A DNA stretch of 63,997 bases, counting the filler, from an uncultured bacterium (GTDB taxonomy: Bacteria; CAYJOG01), in assembly GCA_964371695.1 (NCBI GenBank). It is 7 parts of 7 records of this genome, joined end to end, with 100 filler letters (N's around TTAATTAATTAA, not from the genome) between each part and the next. Parts side by side here need not be neighbours in the genome. Positions count along the whole stretch, not along the records: positions 1 to 9,870 come from CAYJOG010000065.1; 6 more parts are not named here. The stretch is one strand, 5' to 3'. This document shows positions 1 through 13,568 of this stretch, piece after piece; positions within the stretch are counted from its first letter, which is position 1, and every line of letters begins with the position of its first letter. Below the pieces are notes generated by a model. That model did no database searches. It worked only from the letters and a program-made list of their open reading frames with translations, and was not told the DNA's origin. The translations under genes were made by a program, and so were the position numbers.

Positions 1-34
1 GGCAAAGCCCCCGCAAAACCTTCCTGAAACTTCA

Positions 35-77
35 GAGCCTGTTAATAAAGTCCACGACGGATTTTATAAACAGGTTC
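35..77. mobile_element. Short (43 nt) member of a MITE-like family, flanked by TCA on both sides
   Basis: GAGCCTGTTAATAAAGTCC-ACGAC-GGATTTTATAAACAGGTTC is an imperfect palindrome with TCA at 32-34 and 78-80. Its ends match the elements at 16693-16875 and 55397-55580. Confidence 0.65.
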
Positions 78-665
78 TCAGACCGGCGTGACGCTGATGC
101 GTGGGTCCAGGCGCTCGCGCATGAGGTTTTCGATATACATGAGTGTACCGGAGATGGAGCTGGGACAGGAGCCACAGGCCCCCTGATACAGAATCTTGAG
201 CTGAAAGCCCTCCAGGTCCACCACTTCCAGGCCGCCGCCGTCGCCCGCGAGCGCCGGGCGGATCTCCATGTCCAGAATGCCTTCGATGGACTTCACCTGA
301 TCCACCACGTTCATGTCGGCCCAGGGGCCGGTGGCCTGGGGGCCTTCGGCGGCGGGGGTGGCGGGGGCGACTTCGGCTTTTTCGTAGTGCTCTTCAATCA
401 GGGGTTTGACGGTGTTGATCAGCAGGTCCCAGCCCAGTTCGCCGTCCTGCGTGATGGTGATGAAGCGGTCCATCATGAACACTTCGGTGACATGGGGGAT
501 GTTGAGCAGATAAGCCGCCAGCCGGTTGTCGCCCGTTTCATCGGGGCTTGAAAAAGTCAGCGTGCCCCGCGACACCACCTGCTCGCTCAGGTTGAACTTG
601 AGGGCGTTTGGGTTGGGGGTGTACTCGGTGCTGAGAACCTTTGCTTGGGTGGCGGTGGTGTCCAC
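78..665 (-). CDS. NifU/Nfu-type Fe-S cluster carrier (Nfu_N plus NifU-C domains)
   Basis: N-terminal TPNPNALKF motif; C-terminal IRPALAGDGG...GACGSCPSS. Start placed at GTG 665 behind GAAGGAG. Confidence 0.9.
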   Translation of the reverse strand: MDTTATQAKVLSTEYTPNPNALKFNLSEQVVSRGTLTFSSPDETGDNRLAAYLLNIPHVTEVFMMDRFITITQDGELGWDLLINTVKPLIEEHYEKAEVAPATPAAEGPQATGPWADMNVVDQVKSIEGILDMEIRPALAGDGGGLEVVDLEGFQLKILYQGACGSCPSSISGTLMYIENLMRERLDPRISVTPV

Positions 666-907
666 GGCGGCTCCTTCAAACCAGCACAAATCAGCGGCTG
701 GTGTCGCCAAGATTATCCCGGCTGGCAATTTTCACAAGCACCGGGCAAAAATTGACGGTGTGACGGAGCGGGGCGTCCGAAAGCCTGTTGGCCTCGCAAC
801 CACTGGTTCATCTGTTTTGAAATGAGTAGCAGCGACATCCCCATTGCTGCTATATGGGTGCGGTGGGGACACCGCACCTACTCCTCATTTTTAACCAGAC
901 GAACCCA

Positions 908-3900
908 CTACGGATCTACGGTGAAGTTCACGGCGTTGCCGGTGATGCTCCCCACCGTGACGGAAATGGAGCCGGACAGCGCCCCGGTGGGCACGTTCAG
1001 CGTGAGGCTGTTTTGTGTGGCCGCCGTGGGCGTGACGTTGCCCGCGCCGGGAAAGGTGACGGTGTTGCTGGCGGGGGTGGTGCTGAAAGCGCCGCCGGTG
1101 ATGACGATTTGCGCCCCCACCTGGGCATTGGGCGGGGCGATGCTGAGAATGGTGGGTTTCACCACCATGGGCCAGCCGTTGGACGTGTAACCGTTGCGCG
1201 TGACCGTGACATTGCCCGACGTGGCCCCCGTGGGAATCACCACCTCGATTTTGGTTTGTGTGCTGGAACTGAGGGTGACGGGCAGCGTGCCGATTTTGGT
1301 GGTGTTGTCAGTCATGGTAGTGCTGAAACCACTGCCGTTGATCTCCATGCGTTCGCCGATCAGAAACGCGCTGGTGGAAACCGACAGCAGCGAGAGGCTG
1401 GAAATGGCCGGGATGGCCTGGAAGTAGGACGGATTGGATTGCAGGCCCGACGTGATGACATAAATCGGGCCGTTGTCGGCCCCCACGGGCACCTGCACGT
1501 TGAGCGTGGTGACCGAGCCGGAGTTGACCGTGGCCAGGGGCCCCGTCAGGGGGTCCAGAAAACGCACCACGTTGTTGCCCGGCACGGGGTCGAAACTGCT
1601 GCCGGTGATGGCCACGTTGTCCCCCACCCTGGCTGCGCCGGGGGCCACGCTGTTGATCACCGGGCGCACGGTGAAGGGAATGCTGTTGCTGGCGTTGCCG
1701 TTGGTGGTGACCACCAGGGTGGTGGCCCCGGCGGTGAGGCCCATGGGCACCTCGGCGGTGAGTGTGCTGAAATCGGCGCTGAGCACCGTGCCGGGCACAC
1801 CGCCAAAGGTGATGCTGTTGTTGCCGGTGGCGCCGTCAAAGCCGTTGCCGATCACCTGAATGATTTCGCCGCCCCCTGCCGTGGAAGGCTGCGAGGTACT
1901 CAGCGTCACCATCATCTGGAACATCACGGCGTTGGTCACCAAGCCCCCCACCGTCACGGTCACGGGCGAGGTCTCTACGTTATAAGGCACAATGCAGGTG
2001 AGTTGTGTGGTGCTGGCGGTTTGGGTGGCCACGGTGGTGTTGTTGAACTTGATGATATTGCTGGCGGGCGTGGTGCTGAAGCCCTTTCCGTTGATGGTGA
2101 GGGTGATGCCCGCGCCCCCGGATGGCGGACTGAGGTTGGTGATGCGAGGCAGGATGGTGAAGGGAATTTCGTTGGAGGAAATTACGTTTTTGGTGAGGAC
2201 ACTGATGGAAAGCGGCCCCGTGGCGGGCACGGCGGGCACGTTCAGGCCCAGGTGGGTATTGCTGGAACTGATCACCGTGGCGTTGGTGAGGCCGAACCGC
2301 ACGATGTTTTCAGACGCAATGGGGCTGAAACCCGTGCCATAGACCTGCATGGTGGCCCCCACGTTGCCCTCGCTGATGGTGAGGCTGGTGAGCTTGGGGG
2401 TGATGTTGTAACTCACGGTGAGGCTGGTCTGGCCGTTCACCGTCACCGACACAGGCCCCGCCACGGCGTTGGCCGGTACCGACACGGTGAGGTCGGTGGA
2501 GCCGCTCACGGCGGTGGCGGTGGTGTTGACCGTGCCGCTGAAGGTGATGGTGTTGCTGGCGGGGTTGCCGTCAAAACCCAGACCGCTGATGACGATGGCG
2601 TCTCCTATGTTGGCGCTGGCGGGCGTGATGCTGCTGATGACGGGGGCCACACTCACCAGAAAGGCGCCGCTGGAAATGTTGCTGGTGCTCACCACCAGCG
2701 GATACGACCCCGGCCCACTCACCATGGACGAAGGAATATCCACCCCCAGGGCGGTGGCGGTGGCCGAGGCGATGTTCAGCAGCACACCCCCCAATGACAC
2801 CTGATTGTCCGCCGGTGTTTTTCCAAAGCCCTCACCCACCACCACGATGGTCTGGCCCAGGCCCGCCACCGAGGGATTGATGCTGCTGATGACGGGGGTG
2901 ATGGTGAGCTTGAGCGGATCGCTTGTGCCGCTGGCCCCCTGATAGTTGGTGGTGACGGTGACGTCTCCGGTAGAAGCCCCGGTGGGCACACGAAACACCA
3001 GAGAGGTGAACGTGCTGCTGCTCAGGCCAGCGGCCTGGCCATCCACCATCACCCCCATGTTGTTGAAATCGTTGCTGAACCCCTGGCCGTTCAGCGTCAC
3101 CTGTTGCCCCACGGTGGCGGGGTTGACGCTGAAGCCGGTGATGGTGGGCTTGATGCTGAAACTGCCGGTGACCGAGACGAACTCCGGGTAATAACCAGCG
3201 GGCGTGGGCACATAAAGACTGAAGGTGTAAGGCCCGGAATGCGCNNNNNNNNNNGAGAAACTGATATTGATGGCGTTGGCGGCGGGCGACGTGTCATAAC
3301 CAATGCCCGCCTGAAAATAACTGATGCCGTTGACCGTAAAGGACATCTGGCCCGGCACGGCCGTGTTGAGTCCGCTGGCATAGATTCCGGCGGTGCCGCC
3401 GGGGTTCATCGTGCCGGTGCTGGACTCCATGCGGCCAATGCCCACCACCGGCCAGAACGTGTTGCTGGAACTGGTGGGGCTGACATTGTTGCCCACCTGA
3501 GTCACGCCACTGAGGCCAAAAACGCTGTCGAACGTGCTGACCTGGATGTTGCGGATGGTGCCGTTCAGGTTGGCGTCCATGCCCGGCGGCGCGGTGACGG
3601 TGAGCGTGGAGGTGGTGGCGCTGGTGGGCGCCACCGGGGTTTTGTTGAACCACACCGTGTTGTCCGCCGCCGTGGGGGCAAAGCCGTTGCCGGTCACCGT
3701 CACCGTGGTGCCCGCCTGCACCACCGGCCGGGAGGGCAGGAGTGTGACGCTGTCGGTGTAGTTGCCTGTCACGGACGTCACCACCGGCCCGGCGGTGAAG
3801 GTGCCCGCGTTTTCCTGGCTGATGAGGCCGCCCGTGCCCCCGGTGCGCACATAAATCTGCCCCCGGCTGAAACCGGCTGGGGCCAGCGTGGAAATCTGCA

Positions 3901-6508
3901 GGCTGGTCATGGCGGTGATGGTTCCGATCAGCGCCTGGCCTGCAAAACACTGGGCCCCTGTGGCCCCCGCGTTGGCGAAACACACCTGGGTGTCGCCCGG
4001 CTCAAACCCGCTGCCCAGAATGGTGAGGGGGCTTTCGGCAGGCCCCTGGGCCGGGGTAATGGTGGCGACAAAGGGGGTGACGCTGAAGGTATAGGGCGGG
4101 CTGAAGGCCCCCAGGGAACCGCCGTTGCGTATCTGAATGTAACCTGTGTAGGCCCCCAGGGGAATGCTCAACGACAACGTGGTGGAGGTGGACGCACTGA
4201 AGGCCACCTCGTTGCTGTTGAAGAACACCTCCGCATCGCTGGAAAGCGCGCCAAAACCCGTGCCATACAACATGAGCGGCTCACCCACCACCCCCACGGT
4301 GATGCTGCTGGAAGTGATGATGGGCTGCACCTGCACAAACAGTCCGTCGCTCTGGTAGCCCGTGCCCCCCACACTCACTTTCACCAGACTGGAGGTGGCG
4401 TCGGACGGCACCCTGGTGGTGATTTCCGTCTGGTTCAGCACCGCGTCGCCCGAAAGCGGGTTGAGCTGCACAGTCAGGGCCGTGCCCCAATGGATGGCGT
4501 TGTCGGTGACAAAATTGCTGAACCCGACACCCCGGATGGTGATGGTGTCCCCCGCCCGCGCCAGACGCGGAAAAATGCTGGTGATGGTGGGTTTGACCGA
4601 CACCAGGAACTGATTGGTGCTGACCCCGTTCACCATGAAGGACAGATAACCGGAGTTGATGCCGTTGGGCACCATCACTTCCAGGATATCCACACCGGCG
4701 CTCTGGCTCAGGCTCACCTTGAAAAGCTGAATCTGCCCCAGATAAATGTTGCTGATGTCCCCCAGGTTCGAGCCAAACCGTTTGCCATAAATAAAGAAGT
4801 TCTGGCCCCCCACCGGCTTGCTGGGCGACACGCTGGTGATGGACGGGCCAATGGAATAGGACAACGTAGCCGAGGCGCTCACCCCCGCCACCGCCAGGGA
4901 GATCACGTCGTCTTCCACACCAAAGGGCACCGTCACCGTGAGGCTGGTGGGCGTGGCGGCGGTGACCGAAGCCGAAGACGTGGAGAAAAACACGGCGTTT
5001 TGTGTGGGGGTGGCGCTGAAACCGGTGCCCGTGAGGGTCACGGTCTGATCCCACACCAGTGTGCCGCTGGGTGAAATCGCATCCAGCGTGGGCAGCACGG
5101 TGAAGGTGGGCGTGGCCGAAGCCGTGAGCGCCCCCAGCGCCACGGTGAGCGCCCCCGTCACCACCCCCGGTGGCACCACGGCGGCAATCTGGGTGAGACT
5201 GGCGCTGAGCACCGTCACCGGCAGGCCACCGATGTTCACAAACAGGTTGTTGGGGTCGGTGTCGAAGTTGGAGCCGTCGATGGTGATGGCTGTGTTCACC
5301 GAGCCGCTGGTGGGTGAGAGGTTGTTCACCACCGGCAGCACACTGGTAACGGTGTAGGCCACCGGCGCGCTGTTCTGGGCGTTCACCGATACGGTGAGGG
5401 TCTGCGCGCCTGCGGCCACCGTGGCGGGGGTGCGCACGGTGAGTTGCGTGAGGCTGGCGCTCAGCACCGTGGCCGGGAGGCCCCCCAGCAGCACCTGATT
5501 TTCACTCAGGGTGGCCGAGAACTCCGCCCCGTCTATCACCAGAATGGTGCCGGGGTTGCCGCTCAGAGGGGCTATCTGGCTGATGACCGGCGGCCCGGCG
5601 CTGGCCACGCAACAGCCTGGGTCTTCACCGCTTGTGAGCACCACAAAAGCAGCGCCTTCGCTGGTCTGCCCGCCGCTGGTGAGTTTGACCTCACCACTGC
5701 TGGCTCCTGCGGGCACAATGAACACCACGTTGCTCAGGGTGGCCTGTTGCACCGCCAGGGGCACACCTCCCAGGGTCAACACGGCGTCCGCCGGGTCAAA
5801 CCCGGTGGCGGCCACGCTCACCACTTCGCCCACGTGGGCGGCGGCGGGGTTGAGCGCGGTGATGACCGGGCTGTCCTGTGCTGGCCCGGCGGTGGGTGTG
5901 GCAAAGGAAAAAATCAGCTTGGTATTTTCGCGGGCAAAAAACCAATATCCCTTGAAAGGATTCAGCTTGGCCCCCGCCGTGCCCGGCAAAACCTGATTCA
6001 CCTGACCAGCGGTCACGCCAAAAGCCGTGGGCAGCACCCAGGCCGAGGCGGCGCTGAGGGGCAGGATGTTGCTGTCCGGCCCCTGCACGTTCACGTTGTC
6101 ACCCCAGGCCACCGCCTGGGGATAGGGGTTGGCGATGAGGTTCCAGCCCCGGGCCAGTTGCACTTCGATCACCTGGGCGGTCTGGGTGAGGTTGCCCCCC
6201 ACCGTCAGTTGAGAGACCCCAGGCCCCGGCAACACCCACAGGCCCTGGCCCGGCAACACGGCCGAGCCGCTCGTCACCGGCGTGGCCAGACCTTTATAGG
6301 TATAAGCCTCCACACCACCGGGCATGGTCACGCCACTGGCGGGCAAACCCACCAGCGACCAGCCTCCCTGATCGTTCGTCAACGGCACGGTGAAACCCGC
6401 CTGGGCAGACCGCAGACACAGCAGGCTCAGCAGACAAAGCCACACCGCCCAGACACGACAAGACACACGCACGACAGGCTTAAGTATACCCCTTTCAGGG
6501 CACTGCAT
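908..6508 (-). CDS. Giant secreted IPT/TIG (Ig-like) repeat protein, about 1,860 aa
   Basis: Signal peptide ending ..LLCLRSAQA; N-terminal GWSLVGLP/GWNLIANPY/KGYWF module; about 19 repeats of P-(V/T)-I-(T/S)-S-x-x-P...G-x-x-F. A 10-N gap lies at 3245-3254. Start is ATG 6508 or GTG 6472; the ORF-track start at 6748 lies inside hxsA. Confidence 0.85.
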   Translation of the reverse strand: MQCPERGILKPVVRVSCRVWAVWLCLLSLLCLRSAQAGFTVPLTNDQGGWSLVGLPASGVTMPGGVEAYTYKGLATPVTSGSAVLPGQGLWVLPGPGVSQLTVGGNLTQTAQVIEVQLARGWNLIANPYPQAVAWGDNVNVQGPDSNILPLSAASAWVLPTAFGVTAGQVNQVLPGTAGAKLNPFKGYWFFARENTKLIFSFATPTAGPAQDSPVITALNPAAAHVGEVVSVAATGFDPADAVLTLGGVPLAVQQATLSNVVFIVPAGASSGEVKLTSGGQTSEGAAFVVLTSGEDPGCCVASAGPPVISQIAPLSGNPGTILVIDGAEFSATLSENQVLLGGLPATVLSASLTQLTVRTPATVAAGAQTLTVSVNAQNSAPVAYTVTSVLPVVNNLSPTSGSVNTAITIDGSNFDTDPNNLFVNIGGLPVTVLSASLTQIAAVVPPGVVTGALTVALGALTASATPTFTVLPTLDAISPSGTLVWDQTVTLTGTGFSATPTQNAVFFSTSSASVTAATPTSLTVTVPFGVEDDVISLAVAGVSASATLSYSIGPSITSVSPSKPVGGQNFFIYGKRFGSNLGDISNIYLGQIQLFKVSLSQSAGVDILEVMVPNGINSGYLSFMVNGVSTNQFLVSVKPTITSIFPRLARAGDTITIRGVGFSNFVTDNAIHWGTALTVQLNPLSGDAVLNQTEITTRVPSDATSSLVKVSVGGTGYQSDGLFVQVQPIITSSSITVGVVGEPLMLYGTGFGALSSDAEVFFNSNEVAFSASTSTTLSLSIPLGAYTGYIQIRNGGSLGAFSPPYTFSVTPFVATITPAQGPAESPLTILGSGFEPGDTQVCFANAGATGAQCFAGQALIGTITAMTSLQISTLAPAGFSRGQIYVRTGGTGGLISQENAGTFTAGPVVTSVTGNYTDSVTLLPSRPVVQAGTTVTVTGNGFAPTAADNTVWFNKTPVAPTSATTSTLTVTAPPGMDANLNGTIRNIQVSTFDSVFGLSGVTQVGNNVSPTSSSNTFWPVVGIGRMESSTGTMNPGGTAGIYASGLNTAVPGQMSFTVNGISYFQAGIGYDTSPAANAINISFXXXXAHSGPYTFSLYVPTPAGYYPEFVSVTGSFSIKPTITGFSVNPATVGQQVTLNGQGFSNDFNNMGVMVDGQAAGLSSSTFTSLVFRVPTGASTGDVTVTTNYQGASGTSDPLKLTITPVISSINPSVAGLGQTIVVVGEGFGKTPADNQVSLGGVLLNIASATATALGVDIPSSMVSGPGSYPLVVSTSNISSGAFLVSVAPVISSITPASANIGDAIVISGLGFDGNPASNTITFSGTVNTTATAVSGSTDLTVSVPANAVAGPVSVTVNGQTSLTVSYNITPKLTSLTISEGNVGATMQVYGTGFSPIASENIVRFGLTNATVISSSNTHLGLNVPAVPATGPLSISVLTKNVISSNEIPFTILPRITNLSPPSGGAGITLTINGKGFSTTPASNIIKFNNTTVATQTASTTQLTCIVPYNVETSPVTVTVGGLVTNAVMFQMMVTLSTSQPSTAGGGEIIQVIGNGFDGATGNNSITFGGVPGTVLSADFSTLTAEVPMGLTAGATTLVVTTNGNASNSIPFTVRPVINSVAPGAARVGDNVAITGSSFDPVPGNNVVRFLDPLTGPLATVNSGSVTTLNVQVPVGADNGPIYVITSGLQSNPSYFQAIPAISSLSLLSVSTSAFLIGERMEINGSGFSTTMTDNTTKIGTLPVTLSSSTQTKIEVVIPTGATSGNVTVTRNGYTSNGWPMVVKPTILSIAPPNAQVGAQIVITGGAFSTTPASNTVTFPGAGNVTPTAATQNSLTLNVPTGALSGSISVTVGSITGNAVNFTVDP

Positions 6509-6608
6509 AACCTGCGGAGCAAAGCTGTCCACCGCAATTTGTTTTAATTCGTAATGCTCGTGATGCTCGGCAAATCCAGTCCCATGCCTTGAAACCGTCC
6601 GCCCCGCC

Positions 6609-6983
6609 TCACCAACTGCCGTGGCTGCCGTGGCTGCCGTGCGATCCGTGGCTGCCGTGGCTGCCGTGGCTGGCGTGACTGCCGTGACTGGCATGGCTGC
6701 CGTGGCTGCCGTGAGAGCAGTGGCTGCCGTGGCTGGCGTGGCTGGCATGGCTGCCGGGGTCCAGGTTCATGAACTCCAGGCCGTCGCCCTCGGGGTGAAT
6801 CAGTGGATTGGCCCCCGAAAGGGTGCTGCCGATGATCAGCAGCGTGGTGGCGCCGGTCAGGGATTGTTCGCGGGTCATTTTGCCTTCCTCGGACTGCAAA
6901 AACATGCCCACCTTTTTTTTCATGGCGGGAACCCGGCTTTTCAAGCCCTTTTTACCGTTTTTCTTGCCGTTTCCCTCGCTCAT
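6609..6983 (-). CDS. hxsA: His-Xaa-Ser repeat precursor peptide (HxsA-type), 124 aa
   Basis: ATG 6983 follows AAAAGGGG. Lys-rich leader, hydrophobic segment, then 15 tandem H-x-S triplets and a terminal W. Lies directly downstream of hxsB. Confidence 0.9.
   Translation of the reverse strand: MSEGNGKKNGKKGLKSRVPAMKKKVGMFLQSEEGKMTREQSLTGATTLLIIGSTLSGANPLIHPEGDGLEFMNLDPGSHASHASHGSHCSHGSHGSHASHGSHASHGSHGSHGSHGSHGSHGSW
6615..6749 (-). repeat. 15 x 9-nt coding tandem repeat (10 HGS, 4 HAS, 1 HCS)
   Basis: GCTGCCGTG-type units counted directly (135 nt). Synonymous variation between units keeps His and Ser fixed. Confidence 0.95.
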
Positions 6984-7020
6984 GGTTGTTCCCCTTTTGC
7001 TGTGGTGAATCACCCCGGCC

Positions 7021-8529
7021 CTATGGGCCGCAGGCGCTTTTTTCGTAGGCATAGTGGTCGAAGTTGTCCTTAATGGTAATCCATCGTTCAAAAACCCTCA
7101 AGATTTGTTCTCTTTTCTCTCCCATCAGGTGCAGGAACAGCGGGTCGAGCATGCCCAGGCTGGTGCGGCACTTGGCGCTGGTACTCATCTGGCCAAACAA
7201 ATCGCCCTGGGCGGTGTAGTTGTAAATGGGGCACACGCCACAATAAGGCTTGTAGGCGCAGTCCTTGCAGCCGGGGATGAAATCCTGCGTGCTCGCCAGC
7301 AGCATGGCCTTGACGGTGTCGTGACGCACGATGTCCCGGTAACCCGAGCGGGACACGTGGCCCAGCTCGAAATTGTCGTCACCCTGCTCCTTCAGCATGC
7401 GGCCTTCGTCGCAGGTGAACACCCCGCCGTCGTGGTTATAACCCACCTGACCGATGCCCGCGCCGCAGGGACTGCGCAGTTCCATGTAATTCGGGTCCCG
7501 GTCGGAAAGGATTTTCTGAAGGTGCAGGGCGGCGGCGCGCTCCATGATTTCCACGCCCTTCAGGTTCAGCTCGATGATGTAATTCAGCGCGTTCTGGTAA
7601 AACTCGATGAACTGCTCGGACGTGTAACCAATCAGCCGGGCTGTTTTCTGCGACCAGCCATAGGGGTTGAGCGCGCGCAGGTGAATCACCTTCAGCCCCA
7701 GGCCCACATAGGTGTCCACGATTTCCTTCCAATAGGGCAGGCTGTGGCGCGTGGTGGTCATGAGCGCGTCCACGTGGTAATAGTCTTCGGGCAGACCCCG
7801 GCGGCGATATTCCGCGTTGATCATGGCCATTTTGGCGGTGACCTCTTCAAAACTGTTGCCCGCGCTGTGATAGGCCCGGTTGCGGTTGTGAACCTCCGGG
7901 GGGCCGTCCAGGCTGGTGCAGAGCATCACGCCGTTGTCGATGAAAAAGTTCATTTTTTCTTCGTCCAGCAGCGTGAGGTTGCTCACCAGGGTAAAAGCCA
8001 GGTGCTTTTTGGCCTCTTTGTTTTTTTCGGTGGCGTATTCGGTGATGAACCTGATGATGGGGAAGTTCACCAGCGGCTCGCCCCCCTGAAACTCAATATT
8101 GATGGCCGGACTGGTGGTCTTGAAAATCAGGTCCACCGTCTGGCGGGCGGTTTCTTCGGTCATGTCGGTGTCCACGCGGTCCATGTTGGCGCGGCTGGCG
8201 TGGCAATAAGAACAGGCATGGTTGCAGCGCAGGGTGACGGTGACGATGTGCAGGTTCGGCCCACTGCTGAGAAACCAGTTGCGGTTGCGGTATTTGGTGA
8301 TGGCCCGGGTGGTGGCGGGGTCGTTGCGCAGAAAACCAGCCTCCAGCAGGGAATGAAACATGGGCAGGTCCTGCGTCATGCGGCCCTCGACAAACGCCTG
8401 GAACTCTGCGGGCGAAAGCGCGATGAAATCCCCCACGTCGTTGGTGATCAGCACCTTGCCGCCCAGGTGACGAAACCTGAAAAAGCCCAGGCGAGGGGCG
8501 TTTTCGCGCACCAGGGCCAGGTTCACCAT
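7021..8529 (-). CDS. hxsB: His-Xaa-Ser system radical SAM/SPASM maturase HxsB
   Basis: TLRCNHACSYCHAS (CxxxCxxC); IEFQGGEP; SPCGAGIGQ..Y..DG..FTCDEGRM; CKDCAYKPYCGVCP SPASM cysteines; N-terminal FRF..LITNDVG. Confidence 0.92.
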   Translation of the reverse strand: MVNLALVRENAPRLGFFRFRHLGGKVLITNDVGDFIALSPAEFQAFVEGRMTQDLPMFHSLLEAGFLRNDPATTRAITKYRNRNWFLSSGPNLHIVTVTLRCNHACSYCHASRANMDRVDTDMTEETARQTVDLIFKTTSPAINIEFQGGEPLVNFPIIRFITEYATEKNKEAKKHLAFTLVSNLTLLDEEKMNFFIDNGVMLCTSLDGPPEVHNRNRAYHSAGNSFEEVTAKMAMINAEYRRRGLPEDYYHVDALMTTTRHSLPYWKEIVDTYVGLGLKVIHLRALNPYGWSQKTARLIGYTSEQFIEFYQNALNYIIELNLKGVEIMERAAALHLQKILSDRDPNYMELRSPCGAGIGQVGYNHDGGVFTCDEGRMLKEQGDDNFELGHVSRSGYRDIVRHDTVKAMLLASTQDFIPGCKDCAYKPYCGVCPIYNYTAQGDLFGQMSTSAKCRTSLGMLDPLFLHLMGEKREQILRVFERWITIKDNFDHYAYEKSACGP

Positions 8530-8756
8530 TGCTTTTTTTCCTCCAGGGTGAAATAAAGCGCGGCGTTGAAAAGCTCGTCCGTCAGTTCACCGGACAGTTC
8601 CGGGTCGTGGGGCTTGCCGGTCACCAGCAGACCGCCAGAGGTTTTCTCCACGGTCAGGGCGGCGTCTTCCGAAAAACTTTTGGCAGCTTTTTTCACCGCC
8701 TTGGCGCTGTAAAGGCGACGGGGAAACTCAAGCCGGAGGGCTGTTTCAGCCGTCAC
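8523..8756 (-). CDS. Small HxsD-like protein
   Basis: 77 aa with LYSAKAVKKAA...ELFNAAL, resembling the N-terminal half of HxsD. Overlaps both neighbours, suggesting translational coupling. Confidence 0.7.
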   Translation of the reverse strand: MTAETALRLEFPRRLYSAKAVKKAAKSFSEDAALTVEKTSGGLLVTGKPHDPELSGELTDELFNAALYFTLEEKKQW

Positions 8757-9210
8757 TGGCGACCTCCCCGGCGGCGGCCTTGACCTCGCCGTATTTTTCT
8801 TCCCACGGCGTGGCGATGCCTAGGGGGTCATCAATCAGGTCATCGTTTTCTTCCTGGCCCAGCAGGTCCATGAAGTCTTCCTGCTGGTCATCGGCGCTGA
8901 AAAGCGCCTTGGCCACGATGTATTCCCGCAGCTTTTGGTTGCTCTTGCTCACCTCGGTGCGAATGGCCTGGTTCACCAGTTCGTTCAAAAACAGGCCCGC
9001 CAGGTGCTCCATGGCCTTTTCGCCGGTTTCTTCCTGGGGTTTGAGCAGCACCCGCACGGCCTTTTTATCGCCTTCTTCCAGCCGCAGATAGGCGCGGTCC
9101 AGAAACACAAAGGCTGCGCCATAGACGGTTTCAAGGGGATAGAGCTTTGCCGGGAGTTCCACCACCACAAAGCCATTTTGGTGAGTAAAAAAAGAGGTTG
9201 GGTCAGTCAT
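8746..9210 (-). CDS. hxsD: His-Xaa-Ser system protein HxsD
   Basis: LYPLETVYGAAFVFLDRAY, FLNELVNQAIR, LREYIVAKAL, and acidic tail DDPLGIATPWEEKYG; sits in the hxs operon. Confidence 0.82.
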   Translation of the reverse strand: MTDPTSFFTHQNGFVVVELPAKLYPLETVYGAAFVFLDRAYLRLEEGDKKAVRVLLKPQEETGEKAMEHLAGLFLNELVNQAIRTEVSKSNQKLREYIVAKALFSADDQQEDFMDLLGQEENDDLIDDPLGIATPWEEKYGEVKAAAGEVASDG

Positions 9211-9337
9211 GAGGTGCTTTCTCGTTGCGATTGGAGCGATTTGGGGAGTATACCCACCGCCCCCTTCCAGCTAACAAAAGCCCAAAAGCCGCAGCCTTTC
9301 CGGTCAAAAACATCCCGGAAAGGTTCACAATGGCCCC

Positions 9338-9870
9338 ATGGCCAATTCACCGCAGCCGCCAGGAAAAGCCTCCGACGTTCTGGTGCGCCTGTTTTTGGTG
9401 CTGCTGCTGTCGCTTGGCGTCATCCGGTTTTTTCAGCGCCAGACCACCCCTCCCCCAAAGCACACAGCCCTGGTCTGCGGCCTGCTCAAACGACACAACA
9501 CACTGCCCCTTTTTGGCGGCGCGGGCCACCTGCACCGTCTGCCCCAGCCTGTGGCCTGGAAAGCCGCGCCGGAGTTGGCCAAAGACGCCCTGGCCGTGAC
9601 CAGACACATTCACCGCGCCACGGGCATCCGTTTCAAACCATGGCCCGACCAAGCCCCCCTGCCCCGCCACGGCATATTTTTCACCTTTGGCCAAGCCAGA
9701 AACGCCGATGGTTCACCGGGCTGCGGTCAGGCGGTGGACTTTCAGAAAAGGGGCCTGACGCGGCTGGTGGTTCCGGCCCGACCTGTCAAAACCTGCCCTG
9801 CGCGGCGACTCATCCTGTTGCACGAACCATTCACGCCCTGGGTTTTGCCGGCCACATCGCGGGTAACTCC
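9338..9870 (+). CDS. Membrane-anchored metzincin-like metallopeptidase, 3'-truncated, with apparent 1-nt frameshift near 9826
   Basis: N-terminal TM segment. LILLHE in one frame continues as TIHALGFAGH in another; adding one A to CACGAACCATTCAC gives HETIHALGFAGH. Confidence 0.55.
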
Positions 9871-9970
9871 NNNNNNNNNNNNNNNNNNNNNNNNNNNNNN
9901 NNNNNNNNNNNNNNTTAATTAATTAANNNNNNNNNNNNNNNNNNNNNNNNNNNNNNNNNNNNNNNNNNNN
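9871..9970. other. Artificial scaffold spacer; also at 19764-19863, 29515-29614, 39220-39319, 48866-48965 and 58469-58568
   Basis: Identical N44-TTAATTAATTAA-N44 linkers with stops in all frames. Internal scaffold lengths fall steadily (9793, 9651, 9605, 9546, 9503), as in a size-sorted concatenation. Confidence 0.98.
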
Positions 9971-9971
9971 G

Positions 9972-11080: not shown

Positions 11081-13360
11081 TCAGTCTTTGTCGCTCTTGG
11101 GTGCGTCGGTGCGGGGGCCGCGGTCGCGGTCGCCATAACGGGGGCGATCCCCTCCCCGGTCCCTGTCTCCATAGCGGGGCCGGTCACCACCCCGGTCCCG
11201 GTCCCGACTACCGCCGCCACGGGGGCCACGGTCACGGTCGCTGGGGGGCGGGGGGGTCCAGCCCTCCGGGGGTTCCGTCGTCTCGCGGATGCTCAGGCTC
11301 ACGCGGGAGCCGTCGTCACTGATCTCGCGCACCTTCACCTTCACCGCTTGGTTCAGGCTCAGCACGTCTTCCACCCGGCCAACACGTTCATAGCTGATCT
11401 GGCTGATGTGGACCAGACCGTCTTTGTTGGGGCCGACTTCCACCACTGCGCCGATGGGCAGGATGCGCTTGACCACGCCGTCATAAATCTTGCCCACTTC
11501 CAGGTCGGTCACGAGGTCTTCAATCATGGCCTTGGCCTTGTTGGACTTTTCGGCGTCGCTGGAATAGATGAGCACCACGCCGTTGTCGCCGTCCACCTCG
11601 ATTTCCGTCTCGCTTTCGGCCTGAAGTTTGCGAATGGTTTTGCCGCCAGGGCCAATGACCAGACCGATTTTCTCTTTGTCAATGCGCACCTGGGTGATGC
11701 GCGGGGCGTTGGGGTTCAGTTCCGGGCGGGCTGCGGCCAGCACTTCGTTCATCTTGCCCAGAATGTGCATCCTGCCCTGGCGGGCCTGCTCCAGCGCCTC
11801 GGCCATGACCTCTTTGCTCAGGCCATGAATCTTGATGTCCATTTGCAGGCTGGTGATGCCCTTTTCGGTGCCCGCCACCTTGAAGTCCATGTCACCCAGG
11901 GCGTCTTCCATGCCCTGAATGTCGCTGAGCACGGCGTTTTGGCCGTCTTTGCTCACCAGACCCATGGCGATGCCCGCCACGGGGCGCTTGATCGGCACGC
12001 CGGCGTCCATCAGAGACAGGCTGCTGCCGCACACGCTGGCCATGGAACTGGAGCCGTTGCTCTCAAGGATTTCGCTCACCACCCGCAGGGTGTAGGGAAA
12101 TTCCTCTTCGCTGGGCAGCATGGGTTCCAGCGCACGCTCGGCCAAGTGACCATGGCCGATTTCGCGGCGGCCCGGCGGACCCAACCGGCGCGCCTCGCCC
12201 ACACAAAAGGGCGGGAAGTTGTAATGGTGCATATAGCGTTTTGAATCTTCGAGGGTGAGGTTGTCGATGATCTGCGCCTCGCCCTTGGTGCCCAGTGTGG
12301 TCACTGAGAGCGCCTGGGTCTGGCCCCGGGTGAACAGAGCGCTGCCATGGGTGCGGCCCAGCACGCCCACACGCACGTCAATGGGGCGGATTTCTTCGCG
12401 CTTGCGGCCATCGGGGCGCACGCCTTCTTTCAGGATGCGATCCCGAACGGTGTCCTTGATGAGCTTGCCATAGGCTTCCTGGGCGTCTTTCAGGCGGCCA
12501 TCGGTGGCCCACTCGGCGGGGGCGGCTTCGCCGATGGTTTTGCCCAGGGCGTCCAGCGCCTGCTGACGCTCGGTTTTGTCAAAAACAAACGCGGCCTCGC
12601 GCAGTTTGTCGCCCACGGTGTTTTTCACATGGGTCACCACTTCTTCAGAAATTTCCTTGGGTATGAAGACCCGTTTGGGCTGGGCGGCCAGGCCGGCGAG
12701 TTCTTCCTGCATGCGCAGCATCTGGCGCAGGTTGTCGTGAGCCAGGCCAATGCCCTCGATGATCTGGGCTTCGGGAATCTCGTTGGCGCCGCCTTCCACC
12801 ATCATCAGCGCGTCGTCAGACCCGCAGACAAAAAAGTCCATGTCGGCGTGTTCCATGTCGTGCAGGCTGGGGTTGAGCGTGAACTGGCCGTTCAGCAGGG
12901 CCACGCGGGAACCCGCCACCGGGCCGGTGAAGGGGATGTTGCTGATCATCAGCGCCGCGCCGGTGGCCAACAGGCCCAACACGTCCAGGGGAAAAGTGTG
13001 GTCGGTGGACAGCGTGTAGACCATCACCAGGGTTTCGCACCGGTAACCCTTGGGAAACAGGGGCCGGATGGGGCGGTCGATCATGCGACAGACCAGTGTG
13101 GCGCTTTCGCCGGGGCGGCCTTCGCGGCGGAAGAAACCACCGGGAATCTTGCCGCCCGCGTACATGCGTTCTTCAAAGTTGACAGTCAGCGGAAAAAAGT
13201 CCAGGCCTTCTCTGGCCTCTGGGGCGCTGACCACGGCGGCCAGCACGGTGTTTTTGCCACAGGTGGCCACCACTGCGCCGTGCGCCTGACGGGCCATGAG
13301 GCCCGTTTCTAGGGTGATTTCGTGGTTTCCCACGGTGTGTTTAATGACATGATGAGCCAT
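11081..13360 (-). CDS. pnp: Polyribonucleotide nucleotidyltransferase (PNPase)
   Basis: FFPLTV, GKIPGGF.RREGRP, RREIGHG, SNGSSSMAS, KH (VIGPGGK) and S1 domains; downstream of rpsO; AAAGGAG RBS. Confidence 0.98.
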   Translation of the reverse strand: MAHHVIKHTVGNHEITLETGLMARQAHGAVVATCGKNTVLAAVVSAPEAREGLDFFPLTVNFEERMYAGGKIPGGFFRREGRPGESATLVCRMIDRPIRPLFPKGYRCETLVMVYTLSTDHTFPLDVLGLLATGAALMISNIPFTGPVAGSRVALLNGQFTLNPSLHDMEHADMDFFVCGSDDALMMVEGGANEIPEAQIIEGIGLAHDNLRQMLRMQEELAGLAAQPKRVFIPKEISEEVVTHVKNTVGDKLREAAFVFDKTERQQALDALGKTIGEAAPAEWATDGRLKDAQEAYGKLIKDTVRDRILKEGVRPDGRKREEIRPIDVRVGVLGRTHGSALFTRGQTQALSVTTLGTKGEAQIIDNLTLEDSKRYMHHYNFPPFCVGEARRLGPPGRREIGHGHLAERALEPMLPSEEEFPYTLRVVSEILESNGSSSMASVCGSSLSLMDAGVPIKRPVAGIAMGLVSKDGQNAVLSDIQGMEDALGDMDFKVAGTEKGITSLQMDIKIHGLSKEVMAEALEQARQGRMHILGKMNEVLAAARPELNPNAPRITQVRIDKEKIGLVIGPGGKTIRKLQAESETEIEVDGDNGVVLIYSSDAEKSNKAKAMIEDLVTDLEVGKIYDGVVKRILPIGAVVEVGPNKDGLVHISQISYERVGRVEDVLSLNQAVKVKVREISDDGSRVSLSIRETTEPPEGWTPPPPSDRDRGPRGGGSRDRDRGGDRPRYGDRDRGGDRPRYGDRDRGPRTDAPKSDKD

Positions 13361-13568
13361 GTCTGCTCCTTTCGCGCTCCGGGCGGAAAGGGCCACTGAG
13401 AAAGTCGCAGGAGATCGTAAAAAGTAAACGACGACCTGACTACGCCTTTGCCGGCGGCCCCTTTTCGTGGGCGCATTTCGTAATTTTTTAATGCTCAGGA
13501 ATCAAGGTGGATTTTGGCGGCCCTCCTTTCCCCGAATGGAGCACAATCATAAAGTTTGTGGACTTTGA

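Follow-up and report, generated by a model that had tools for sequence, protein, structure and literature searches.

A Proposed Two-Part, Prepilin-Like Leader in an HxsA4 Peptide and Its Candidate Link to an A24-Like Peptidase

Introduction

How might a histidine-rich peptide, modified by radical S-adenosylmethionine (radical-SAM) enzymes, shed its leader and reach the far side of the inner membrane when its contig encodes neither an exporter nor a peptidase? This question is raised by the hxsA4 gene at positions 6609 to 6983 (minus strand) of a DNA stretch of 63,997 nucleotides, hereafter the window, from an uncultured bacterium (assembly GCA_964371695.1). Its product is a member of the catalogued HxsA4 family (NF038313), and it is adjoined, upstream and on the same strand, by genes for HxsB and HxsD that both score over their NCBIfam cut-offs. 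Our answer, toward which we lean slightly, is that the leader has two parts: an N-terminal tag that would dock the modifying enzymes, and a Gly-Lys-helix module that would be inserted into the membrane and processed by an A24-family peptidase, with the tail left outside the cytoplasm.

The point of reference is the canonical HXS system of Pseudomonadota (HxsD-HxsB-HxsC-HxsA, TIGR03976-03979), with which the window cluster shares homologous HxsB and HxsD proteins and an HxS-repeat substrate. According to Li et al. (Nat Commun 2026, PMC13128918), the Escherichia coli HXS system stops phage DNA from entering; HxsA there is periplasmic, with a signal peptide spanning residues 1–22 as well as a peptidoglycan-binding domain, and the N-terminal cleavage of HxsA, which is not simple signal-peptide removal, needs HxsB, HxsC, and HxsD. 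The words “protease,” “peptidase,” and “pilin” are absent from the part of that article covered by our word search, and no HxsA-processing protease is named there. Compared with E. coli HxsA, which has five repeats plus the peptidoglycan-binding domain, the window substrate has 124 amino acids and 15 repeats, and is without the domain. Its leader is of the prepilin kind, whereas canonical HxsA has a classical signal peptide, and its cluster includes a second HxsD-like gene, with a distant HxsC-like radical-SAM gene elsewhere in the genome.

The Peptide and Its Family

Translation of the gene gives 124 amino acids and a stop codon. The last 46 residues are 15 uninterrupted HxS triplets and a Trp, in the order (HAS)2-HGS-HCS-(HGS)2-HAS-HGS-HAS-(HGS)6-W, exactly as a first-pass annotation of this DNA had read them. 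Tandem Repeats Finder describes the repeat by a period of 9, 15.7 copies, 80% matches, and a score of 175; the array is far beyond chance. The same annotation took synonymous codon variation between the units as a sign of selection on the peptide, and the codon counts agree (His, CAC 13 and CAT 2; Ser, AGC 10, AGT 3, TCT 1, and TCG 1; Gly, GGC 9 and GGA 1): the use of both serine codon families fits such selection. Because the run varies from 4 to 24 triplets among homologs, copy number drifts as well, and slippage occurs too. A single Cys lies inside the run, at triplet 4 in 12 of the 16 homologs with repeats and at triplet 1 in three of them, and a C-terminal Trp is present in 15/18 distinct homologs; the conserved Cys and the terminal Trp are candidate modification sites.

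Against NF038313 the protein scores 60.8 bits (cut-off 55), with residues 18–124 aligned to profile positions 2–93 of 93, and it is still over the cut-off in a genome-wide search (55.2 bits). It has the same leader as the family, an HxS run with one Cys, the terminal Trp, and the partners HxsB, HxsD, and HxsD-like (NF038315). We see no essential difference from HxsA4; the HxsA3 model NF038309 overlaps. No paper on HxsA4, nor any naming HxsC4, HxsA3, or HxsA2, was found among open-access and bioRxiv texts. An identity as canonical HxsA was rejected, as the peptide has no match to TIGR03979 at E ≤ 0.01 and no peptidoglycan-binding domain, Pfam giving nothing beyond a weak match of the HxS run to Collagen repeats. 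As a separate observation, a related locus (L026:460-801, the same as P0010) joins an HxsA4-type leader to a tail without HxS triplets, which is either a different cargo or a frameshifted copy.

All parts of the gene lie on the minus strand. The start at 6983 is supported by a sequence resembling a ribosome-binding site of the GGGGA type (AAGGGGA, 6990..6997, read from the sequence, approximately 7 nt upstream of the ATG) and by Pro19, which is invariant and, being upstream of the next Met in frame, excludes that Met as the start. Residues 1–34 (6882..6983) form a basic leader of net charge +6 that ends P-x-x-KK-x-x-x-MFLQSEEG; they are proposed to contain the maturase-docking motif and to be the part removed by a peptidase. 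Residues 35–58 (6810..6881) comprise an invariant Lys at +1, the polar KMTREQ, and an 18-residue, weakly hydrophobic stretch ending in SGA (Kyte-Doolittle: best 15-mer 1.49, best 19-mer 1.17). Read in order, the leader holds KKKVGMFLQSEEG, then KMTREQ, then 18 uncharged residues, and its composition is as first described. A linker (residues 59–78, 6750..6809) that is variable across homologs (alignments A1 and A3) leads to the 15 triplets (residues 79–123, 6615..6749), which have their one Cys in triplet 4 and are presumably the core modified by HxsB, and the gene closes with Trp124 and the stop codon (6609..6614).

To judge conservation, we compared 18 distinct HxsA4 sequences drawn from a representative library, genome contigs, and metagenome contigs. 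Two of the six representative-library hits (P0006 and P0011) were dropped as unrelated repeat proteins; a word-indexed protein search with the leader gave no match, and a phylum-level genome search returned only the window's own genome, so that the comparison is one without close relatives. The invariant leader positions are P19, F28, S31, E32, E33, G34, K35, and L48 (A1; equivalent columns in A3). F28, E32, E33, and G34, the motif on which the first-pass annotation had built its case, are thus unvarying among homologs of the window's leader type. It should be kept in mind that the HxsA4 loci retrieved by pattern were selected with SEEGK, which makes the invariance of the motif partly circular for those loci; the same motif is present in sets obtained independently of the pattern, namely four phmmer hits, locus L011 (found by hidden Markov model, HMM), and 20 Myxococcota genes found through NCBIfam.

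The A24-Like Peptidase and the Leader Type

A candidate enzyme comes from a related locus, L019, which is part of a 59-kb contig. It carries the same block of hxsD, hxsD-like, hxsB, and hxsA4 (the last in three copies), each family being confirmed (HxsD-like: NF038315, 62.8 bits), and ahead of the block stand two HxsC-like radical-SAM genes, a 179-amino-acid open reading frame (ORF), and a polytopic membrane protein of 400 amino acids, the last of these placed between the HxsC-like genes and hxsD. The match of this membrane protein to Pfam Peptidase_A24 is weak (22.1 bits; cut-off 26.5). Three of the five members of its family are matched by Peptidase_A24 at E ≤ 0.01 (best 8.7e-9), and both catalytic Asp motifs (D27; D103 in GDAK) are invariant in all five aligned members. 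Homologs of this A24-like protein are present in 5/5 other HxsA4 genomes and in one of 101 diverse genomes, which is itself an HxsA4 genome and among the five.

A wider count was made in 151 Myxococcota genomes. Here, HxsA4 exceeds the cut-off in 49 genomes and the A24-like gene occurs in 24; the two coincide in 22, and in two genomes the peptidase stands alone. Of these two, one shows a partial match to HxsA4 where a contig ends, and the second is fragmented. EEGK and, after it, a weakly hydrophobic stretch are found in 22/22 Myxococcota genomes with the peptidase and in 0/26 readable genomes without it (a 27th is interrupted by N's). Conversely, the A24-like peptidase is present in 25/25 other genomes with the window's leader type. 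The best 15-mer hydropathy is 1.19–1.97 with the peptidase versus −0.25 to 1.17 without it (20 genomes each), with no overlap. The N-terminal pattern LP-x-x-KK-x-x-x-x-FL-x-x-acidic, searched as a regular expression, occurs in 20/20 leaders with the peptidase versus 12/20 without.

In these other genomes, then, it is the second part of the leader, Lys at +1 and the hydrophobic stretch, that varies together with the peptidase, and not FLxSEEG as such. Judged by its sequence (EEGK; 15-mer 1.49), the window leader belongs to the peptidase-linked type. The alternative offered at first pass, in which the motif is what the maturase recognizes, probably holds as well: FLxx(E/D)E persists in genomes without the peptidase, and since FLxSEE(G) is found where the peptidase is missing, it probably docks the maturase as well.

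The gene neighborhood points the same way. Of the 24 Myxococcota genomes that have the A24-like gene, 18 carry it, by coordinates, directly downstream of an HxsC-like radical-SAM gene, and the same adjacency is seen in eight of the loci checked by tblastn; in L019, one small ORF stands in between. Like TadV/CpaA-type A24 peptidases (PF01478), the associated membrane protein falls in the A24 family, with both catalytic Asp motifs present. It differs from them in its length of approximately 400 amino acids with a large extra C-terminal region, and in the linkage of its gene to radical-SAM genes rather than Tad genes. The pairing of an A24 peptidase with a radical-SAM-modified HxS peptide is in no paper that we found among open-access and bioRxiv main texts. 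Judging by titles and the opening lines of abstracts, none of the papers that name both “prepilin peptidase” and “radical SAM” concerns such a link. Similarly, the words “prepilin,” “A24,” “aspartyl,” and “pilin” are absent from the searched portion of a review of leader proteases for RiPPs (ribosomally synthesized, post-translationally modified peptides).

Comparison with Flp Prepilins

The second part of the leader, Gly-Lys and a weakly hydrophobic helix, resembles the end of an Flp prepilin leader. Our comparison set consisted of Flp pilins from 14 of the 101 diverse genomes; in most of them the leader closes with F-x-x-(D/E/K)-E-x-G, and the helix that directly follows is strongly hydrophobic and bears Glu-Tyr at +5/+6. 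HxsA4 likewise has a basic leader (34 amino acids and net charge +6 in the window) that ends F-x-x-(D/E/S)-E-x-G ahead of a hydrophobic segment, and its Gly34 is invariant in the leader type. When the HxsA4 leaders were aligned with those of Flp by hhalign, the Gly residues coincided, as did the +5 positions (score 16.7, P 0.0022, probability 12.8%). Column-shuffled Flp alignments averaged 8.0 (sd 1.9), with 1/200 reaching 16.7, and the reversed alignment scored 7.4. The Flp-like register noticed at first pass is borne out, and we take the likeness to be real but weak.

Beyond the register, the two families part. Glu at +5, to which the first-pass annotation had drawn attention, does occur in the window; it is not a feature of the family, being present in 13/18 distinct sequences and in 0/20 Myxococcota leaders of the same type. 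At +6 the window has Gln, and leaders of its type have no aromatic residue there. The best 19-mer hydropathy after the Gly is 0.83–1.59 in HxsA4 (window 1.17) versus 1.85–3.26 in 16 Flp sequences, so the helix is indeed only weakly hydrophobic, as had been said. An HMM built from 15 Flp leaders gives the window 1.6 bits. In contrast to the Flp/Fap prepilins (PF04964), HxsA4 is not a family member, its helix is much less hydrophobic, and Glu+5/Tyr+6 are not conserved.

These data bear on whether the peptide is itself a true Flp-type pilin that, once processed, polymerizes into a Tad-like fiber displaying the modified HxS repeats. Such a pilin would have just this Flp-like leader in the correct register and an associated A24 peptidase, but we consider it highly improbable. 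Its hydropathy is far below that of Flp, Glu+5 is missing from all 20 Myxococcota leaders, as is the aromatic residue at +6, and among the neighbors of the hxs genes, whether in the window, in L019, or in L031, no Tad assembly genes were seen. Moreover, neither the whole protein nor the leader alone matches Pfam Flp_Fap at E ≤ 10.

A Model of the Peptidase with the Leader

Does the leader fit the peptidase? We modeled the L019 peptidase (400 amino acids, 5-row alignment) together with residues 1–70 of the neighboring HxsA4 (12-row alignment). The complex scored 0.69 in each of three runs, and the best of three controls scored 0.00. This mark is reached by 116/157 solved complexes and by 2/215 mismatched pairs, counts that are only a rough guide here since the alignments were custom-made. 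At least 79% of contacts are common to the runs, and the predicted local distance difference test (pLDDT) value of the partner is at least 59. On the peptidase side, the confidently modeled interface includes residue 27, residues 97–106 (both catalytic Asp are included), and the helix 130–144; on the substrate side, it spans residues 18–48, that is, the whole FLQSEEGK motif and the helix, with the motif Phe contacting peptidase residues 91, 94, 101, and 104. A PDB sequence search with the peptidase family profile returned no relative or like complex. As a prediction, the model supports binding of the leader at the catalytic face of the peptidase.

Together with the Flp-like register and the co-occurrence of the A24-like peptidase, this model of the catalytic region favors the prepilin reading of the leader made at first pass. 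The support is partial: the variable Glu+5, the weak helix, the missing Flp match, and the failure to find an A24 or Flp gene in this assembly do not fit that reading.

Weighing the Proposed Two-Part Leader

Several observations weigh against a two-part, A24-processed leader. The complex model is no measurement and points to no particular scissile bond. The sequence (S/A)(E/D)EG, followed by Ala, is kept in 8/25 readable HxsA4-type leaders without the peptidase, and hence the Gly is not specific to cleavage; 27/49 Myxococcota HxsA4 genomes are without the peptidase. On a tree of the HxsC-like enzyme (60 rows, quick IQ-TREE), the presence of the peptidase needs only three changes, and strongly supported branches force only one. 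Shuffles on this tree required a mean of 19 changes, with 0/500 as low as three. The genomes lacking the peptidase make up two well-supported clades, of 13 and 20 rows, and the window's HxsC-like enzyme sits on a long, unsupported branch outside both. With three changes on the tree, the counts given above reflect some 2–3 evolutionary events within Myxococcota plus unrelated lineages (G101 and G105). In addition, six polar residues, two of them basic, stand between Gly34 and the hydrophobic stretch, whereas the hydrophobic part of Flp starts at the cut, and the window helix is below the usual transmembrane threshold.

Small-x-small sites also come after the helix (SGA in the window), which would allow cleavage by signal peptidase I instead. 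In that event, the FLQSEEGK region would only dock the maturase, the hydrophobic stretch would be the h-region of a Sec signal cut at SGA|N, and the A24-like protein would be otherwise employed. The stretch, with 12–20 uncharged residues and a best 19-mer of 0.83–1.59, suits an h-region better than a transmembrane helix; small-x-small motifs follow it in the window, with SGA at −3 to −1, and in the homologs inspected by eye; FLxx(E/D)E is found in leaders without the peptidase; and the signal peptide of canonical E. coli HxsA occupies residues 1–22 (PMC13128918). The stretch is, however, lost wherever the A24-like gene is missing (0/26 readable genomes vs. 22/22), a dependence not expected of a general Sec signal. 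An h-region at residues 41–58 would follow an atypical n-region of 40 residues, the net charge immediately before it is approximately 0, and the complex model places motif and helix on the catalytic face of the peptidase. We judge Sec processing of this kind unlikely, if worth keeping in view.

A further set of points against the A24-processed leader comes from this genome itself. No A24-family gene was found in the assembly with Pfam PF01478 (E ≤ 10), with the L019 protein (E ≤ 1), or with the family profile (E ≤ 1), and a search of all six frames for the A24-like peptidase with hmmsearch --max gave a best E of 2. The syntenic position, downstream of the HxsC-like gene on contig C371, holds the end of a convergent gene, not a peptidase. 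We also considered a peptidase just past the end of C371, beside the HxsC-like gene, and rejected it because the last 105 nt belong to this convergent gene. Likewise, no Flp gene was found in the assembly. The assembly does hold 10 matches to T2SSE-family ATPases, two of them full-length. Pilus and secretion systems with T2SSE-family ATPases need a prepilin peptidase. Since these ATPases are present and the assembly is 83% complete, at least one prepilin peptidase gene is probably in the unassembled part; we attribute the absence of a peptidase here to the incomplete assembly, and regard it as uninformative.

Might the peptide simply stay in the cytoplasm, uncleaved, with its whole leader held by HxsB or HxsD and its product acting intracellularly, perhaps as a His-rich peptide that binds metal? 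Radical-SAM modification has to be cytoplasmic, the hydrophobicity of the helix is too weak for insertion into a membrane to be assumed with confidence, and, as noted, there is no exporter or peptidase on the window contig. Yet the helix co-varies with a polytopic membrane protease, the model supports binding of the leader by that protease, and canonical HxsA is described as periplasmic (PMC13128918). A cytoplasmic, uncleaved peptide is, in our judgment, improbable.

The HxsC-Like Partner

The window cluster has no hxsC, and none of the 21 matches to TIGR03977 in the genome reaches the cut-off of 267.9 bits. Elsewhere in this genome (G000), at C371:2553-3524 (L004:1483-2454), there is a radical-SAM gene that shares 56% identity with one from the hxs cluster of L019 and has HxsC as its best NCBIfam match (95.9 bits, below the cut-off). 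This HxsC-like family is found in 58 of the 151 Myxococcota genomes, including 49/49 with HxsA4 over the cut-off, which indicates that the gene is a core partner of HxsA4 and that the system here is split over at least two contigs. With such a distribution, the HxsC-like gene was rejected as a marker of the peptidase-linked type. The first-pass annotation had spoken of a missing exporter, and neither hxsC nor an A24 gene is in the cluster; because the window joins contigs and the HxsC-like gene is on another one, such gaps are partly an effect of assembly fragmentation. Directly upstream of the HxsC-like gene on C371 is a membrane protein of approximately 150 amino acids with no A24 motif and no family match.

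Two side observations concern this enzyme family. The HxsC-like match in each of G121, G151, G237, G172, and G167, all of the peptidase-linked type, contains one in-frame TGA, which may be selenocysteine or a sequencing artifact. At E ≤ 1e-10 the HxsC4 radical-SAM model has 11 matches in the window's genome, all of them short of the cut-off; they are spread over C210, C517, C121, C594, C56 (two in tandem), C406, and others, and the genome is rich in such radical-SAM genes.

The Locus and Its Neighbors

Window positions 1–9870 are contig C65 of a 3.43-Mb assembly (672 contigs, 83% complete). It is important to remember that the window is a concatenation of several contigs via N spacers, and that genes past 9870 are not neighbors of the hxs cluster; the first spacer, at 9871–9971, carries a TTAATTAATTAA linker.

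On the minus strand the gene order is hxsD, hxsD-like, hxsB, hxsA4, with hxsA4 downstream. The cluster's first gene, hxsD (8746..9210, 154 amino acids), scores 54.6 bits against TIGR03976 (cut-off 50). It is followed by hxsD-like (8523..8756, 77 amino acids), at 39.6 bits slightly below the NF038315 cut-off of 41, and by hxsB (7021..8529, 502 amino acids), the radical-SAM/SPASM maturase, with 533.3 bits against TIGR03978 (cut-off 370) and Pfam matches to Radical_SAM, Fer4_12, and SPASM. These three genes overlap by a few bases, and a gap of 37 nt separates hxsB from hxsA4. Upstream of hxsD, a divergent ORF without family assignment runs off the contig end.

Approximately 100 nt downstream of hxsA4 is a gene (908..6508, minus strand; likely start 6508) for a secreted protein of approximately 1,866 amino acids with a signal peptide and 15 IPT/TIG domains. 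Giant secreted proteins are also encoded downstream of hxsA4 in the related loci L019, L023, and L027; these are mutually related, and BLASTP finds no relationship between them and the TIG-repeat protein of the window.

Promoter and terminator scans of the locus gave nothing better than shuffled sequence. PADLOC reported nothing for HxsA4, the HxsD proteins, or the peptidase, and only generic radical-SAM (viperin-model) matches for HxsB. On another contig of the window (11081–13396, minus strand) there is a polynucleotide-phosphorylase-like protein, so recognized by eye, whose C-terminal tail, unusually, abounds in Arg, Asp, and Gly.

Conclusions

The sequence of events that we lean toward can be set out as follows. 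The first part of the leader, the basic tag P-x-x-KK-x-x-x-x-FL-x-S-E-E that is common to HxsA4 proteins, most likely docks the cytoplasmic maturation enzymes; these would be HxsB, the two HxsD proteins, and the HxsC-like radical-SAM enzyme, which would modify the HxS/Cys core in the cytoplasm. The helix would then insert into the inner membrane so that the N-terminus stays inside and the C-terminus comes to lie outside, and a dedicated A24-family aspartyl peptidase would cut off the basic tag, at EEG|K or close to it, leaving the His-rich tail outside the cytoplasm, anchored or released later. The data show that the peptide belongs to the family, that the motif is conserved, and that in other genomes the second part of the leader co-varies with the peptidase; the topology, the cut site, the order of the steps, and the function are what we infer here.

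More tentatively, and with slightly less conviction than doubt, we suggest that an A24 peptidase has been recruited as both leader peptidase and membrane gate, the tag being fused to a degenerate Flp-prepilin module that is gained and lost with the peptidase, and that the modified (HxS)n array is held outside the inner membrane by the helix. This weak helix would hold the array where canonical HxsA uses a peptidoglycan-binding domain, and the array might act there, for example against incoming phage DNA. An antiphage role of the window system is only an analogy.

For the trimming of the effector and its exit from the cytoplasm after radical-SAM modification, the HxsA4 branch provides a concrete candidate, a pilin-type membrane protease together with a pilin-like leader module, and if the reading is true it would be a candidate for the processing step of Hxs systems. 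For the window itself the message is narrower: its HxsA4 is a member of the peptidase-linked leader type. If the wider proposal is true, this would be the first RiPP-like pathway to use pilin-processing machinery; if confirmed, it would add a new class of leader peptidase to peptide maturation, and the signal of a pilin would have been reused for export without a dedicated transporter.

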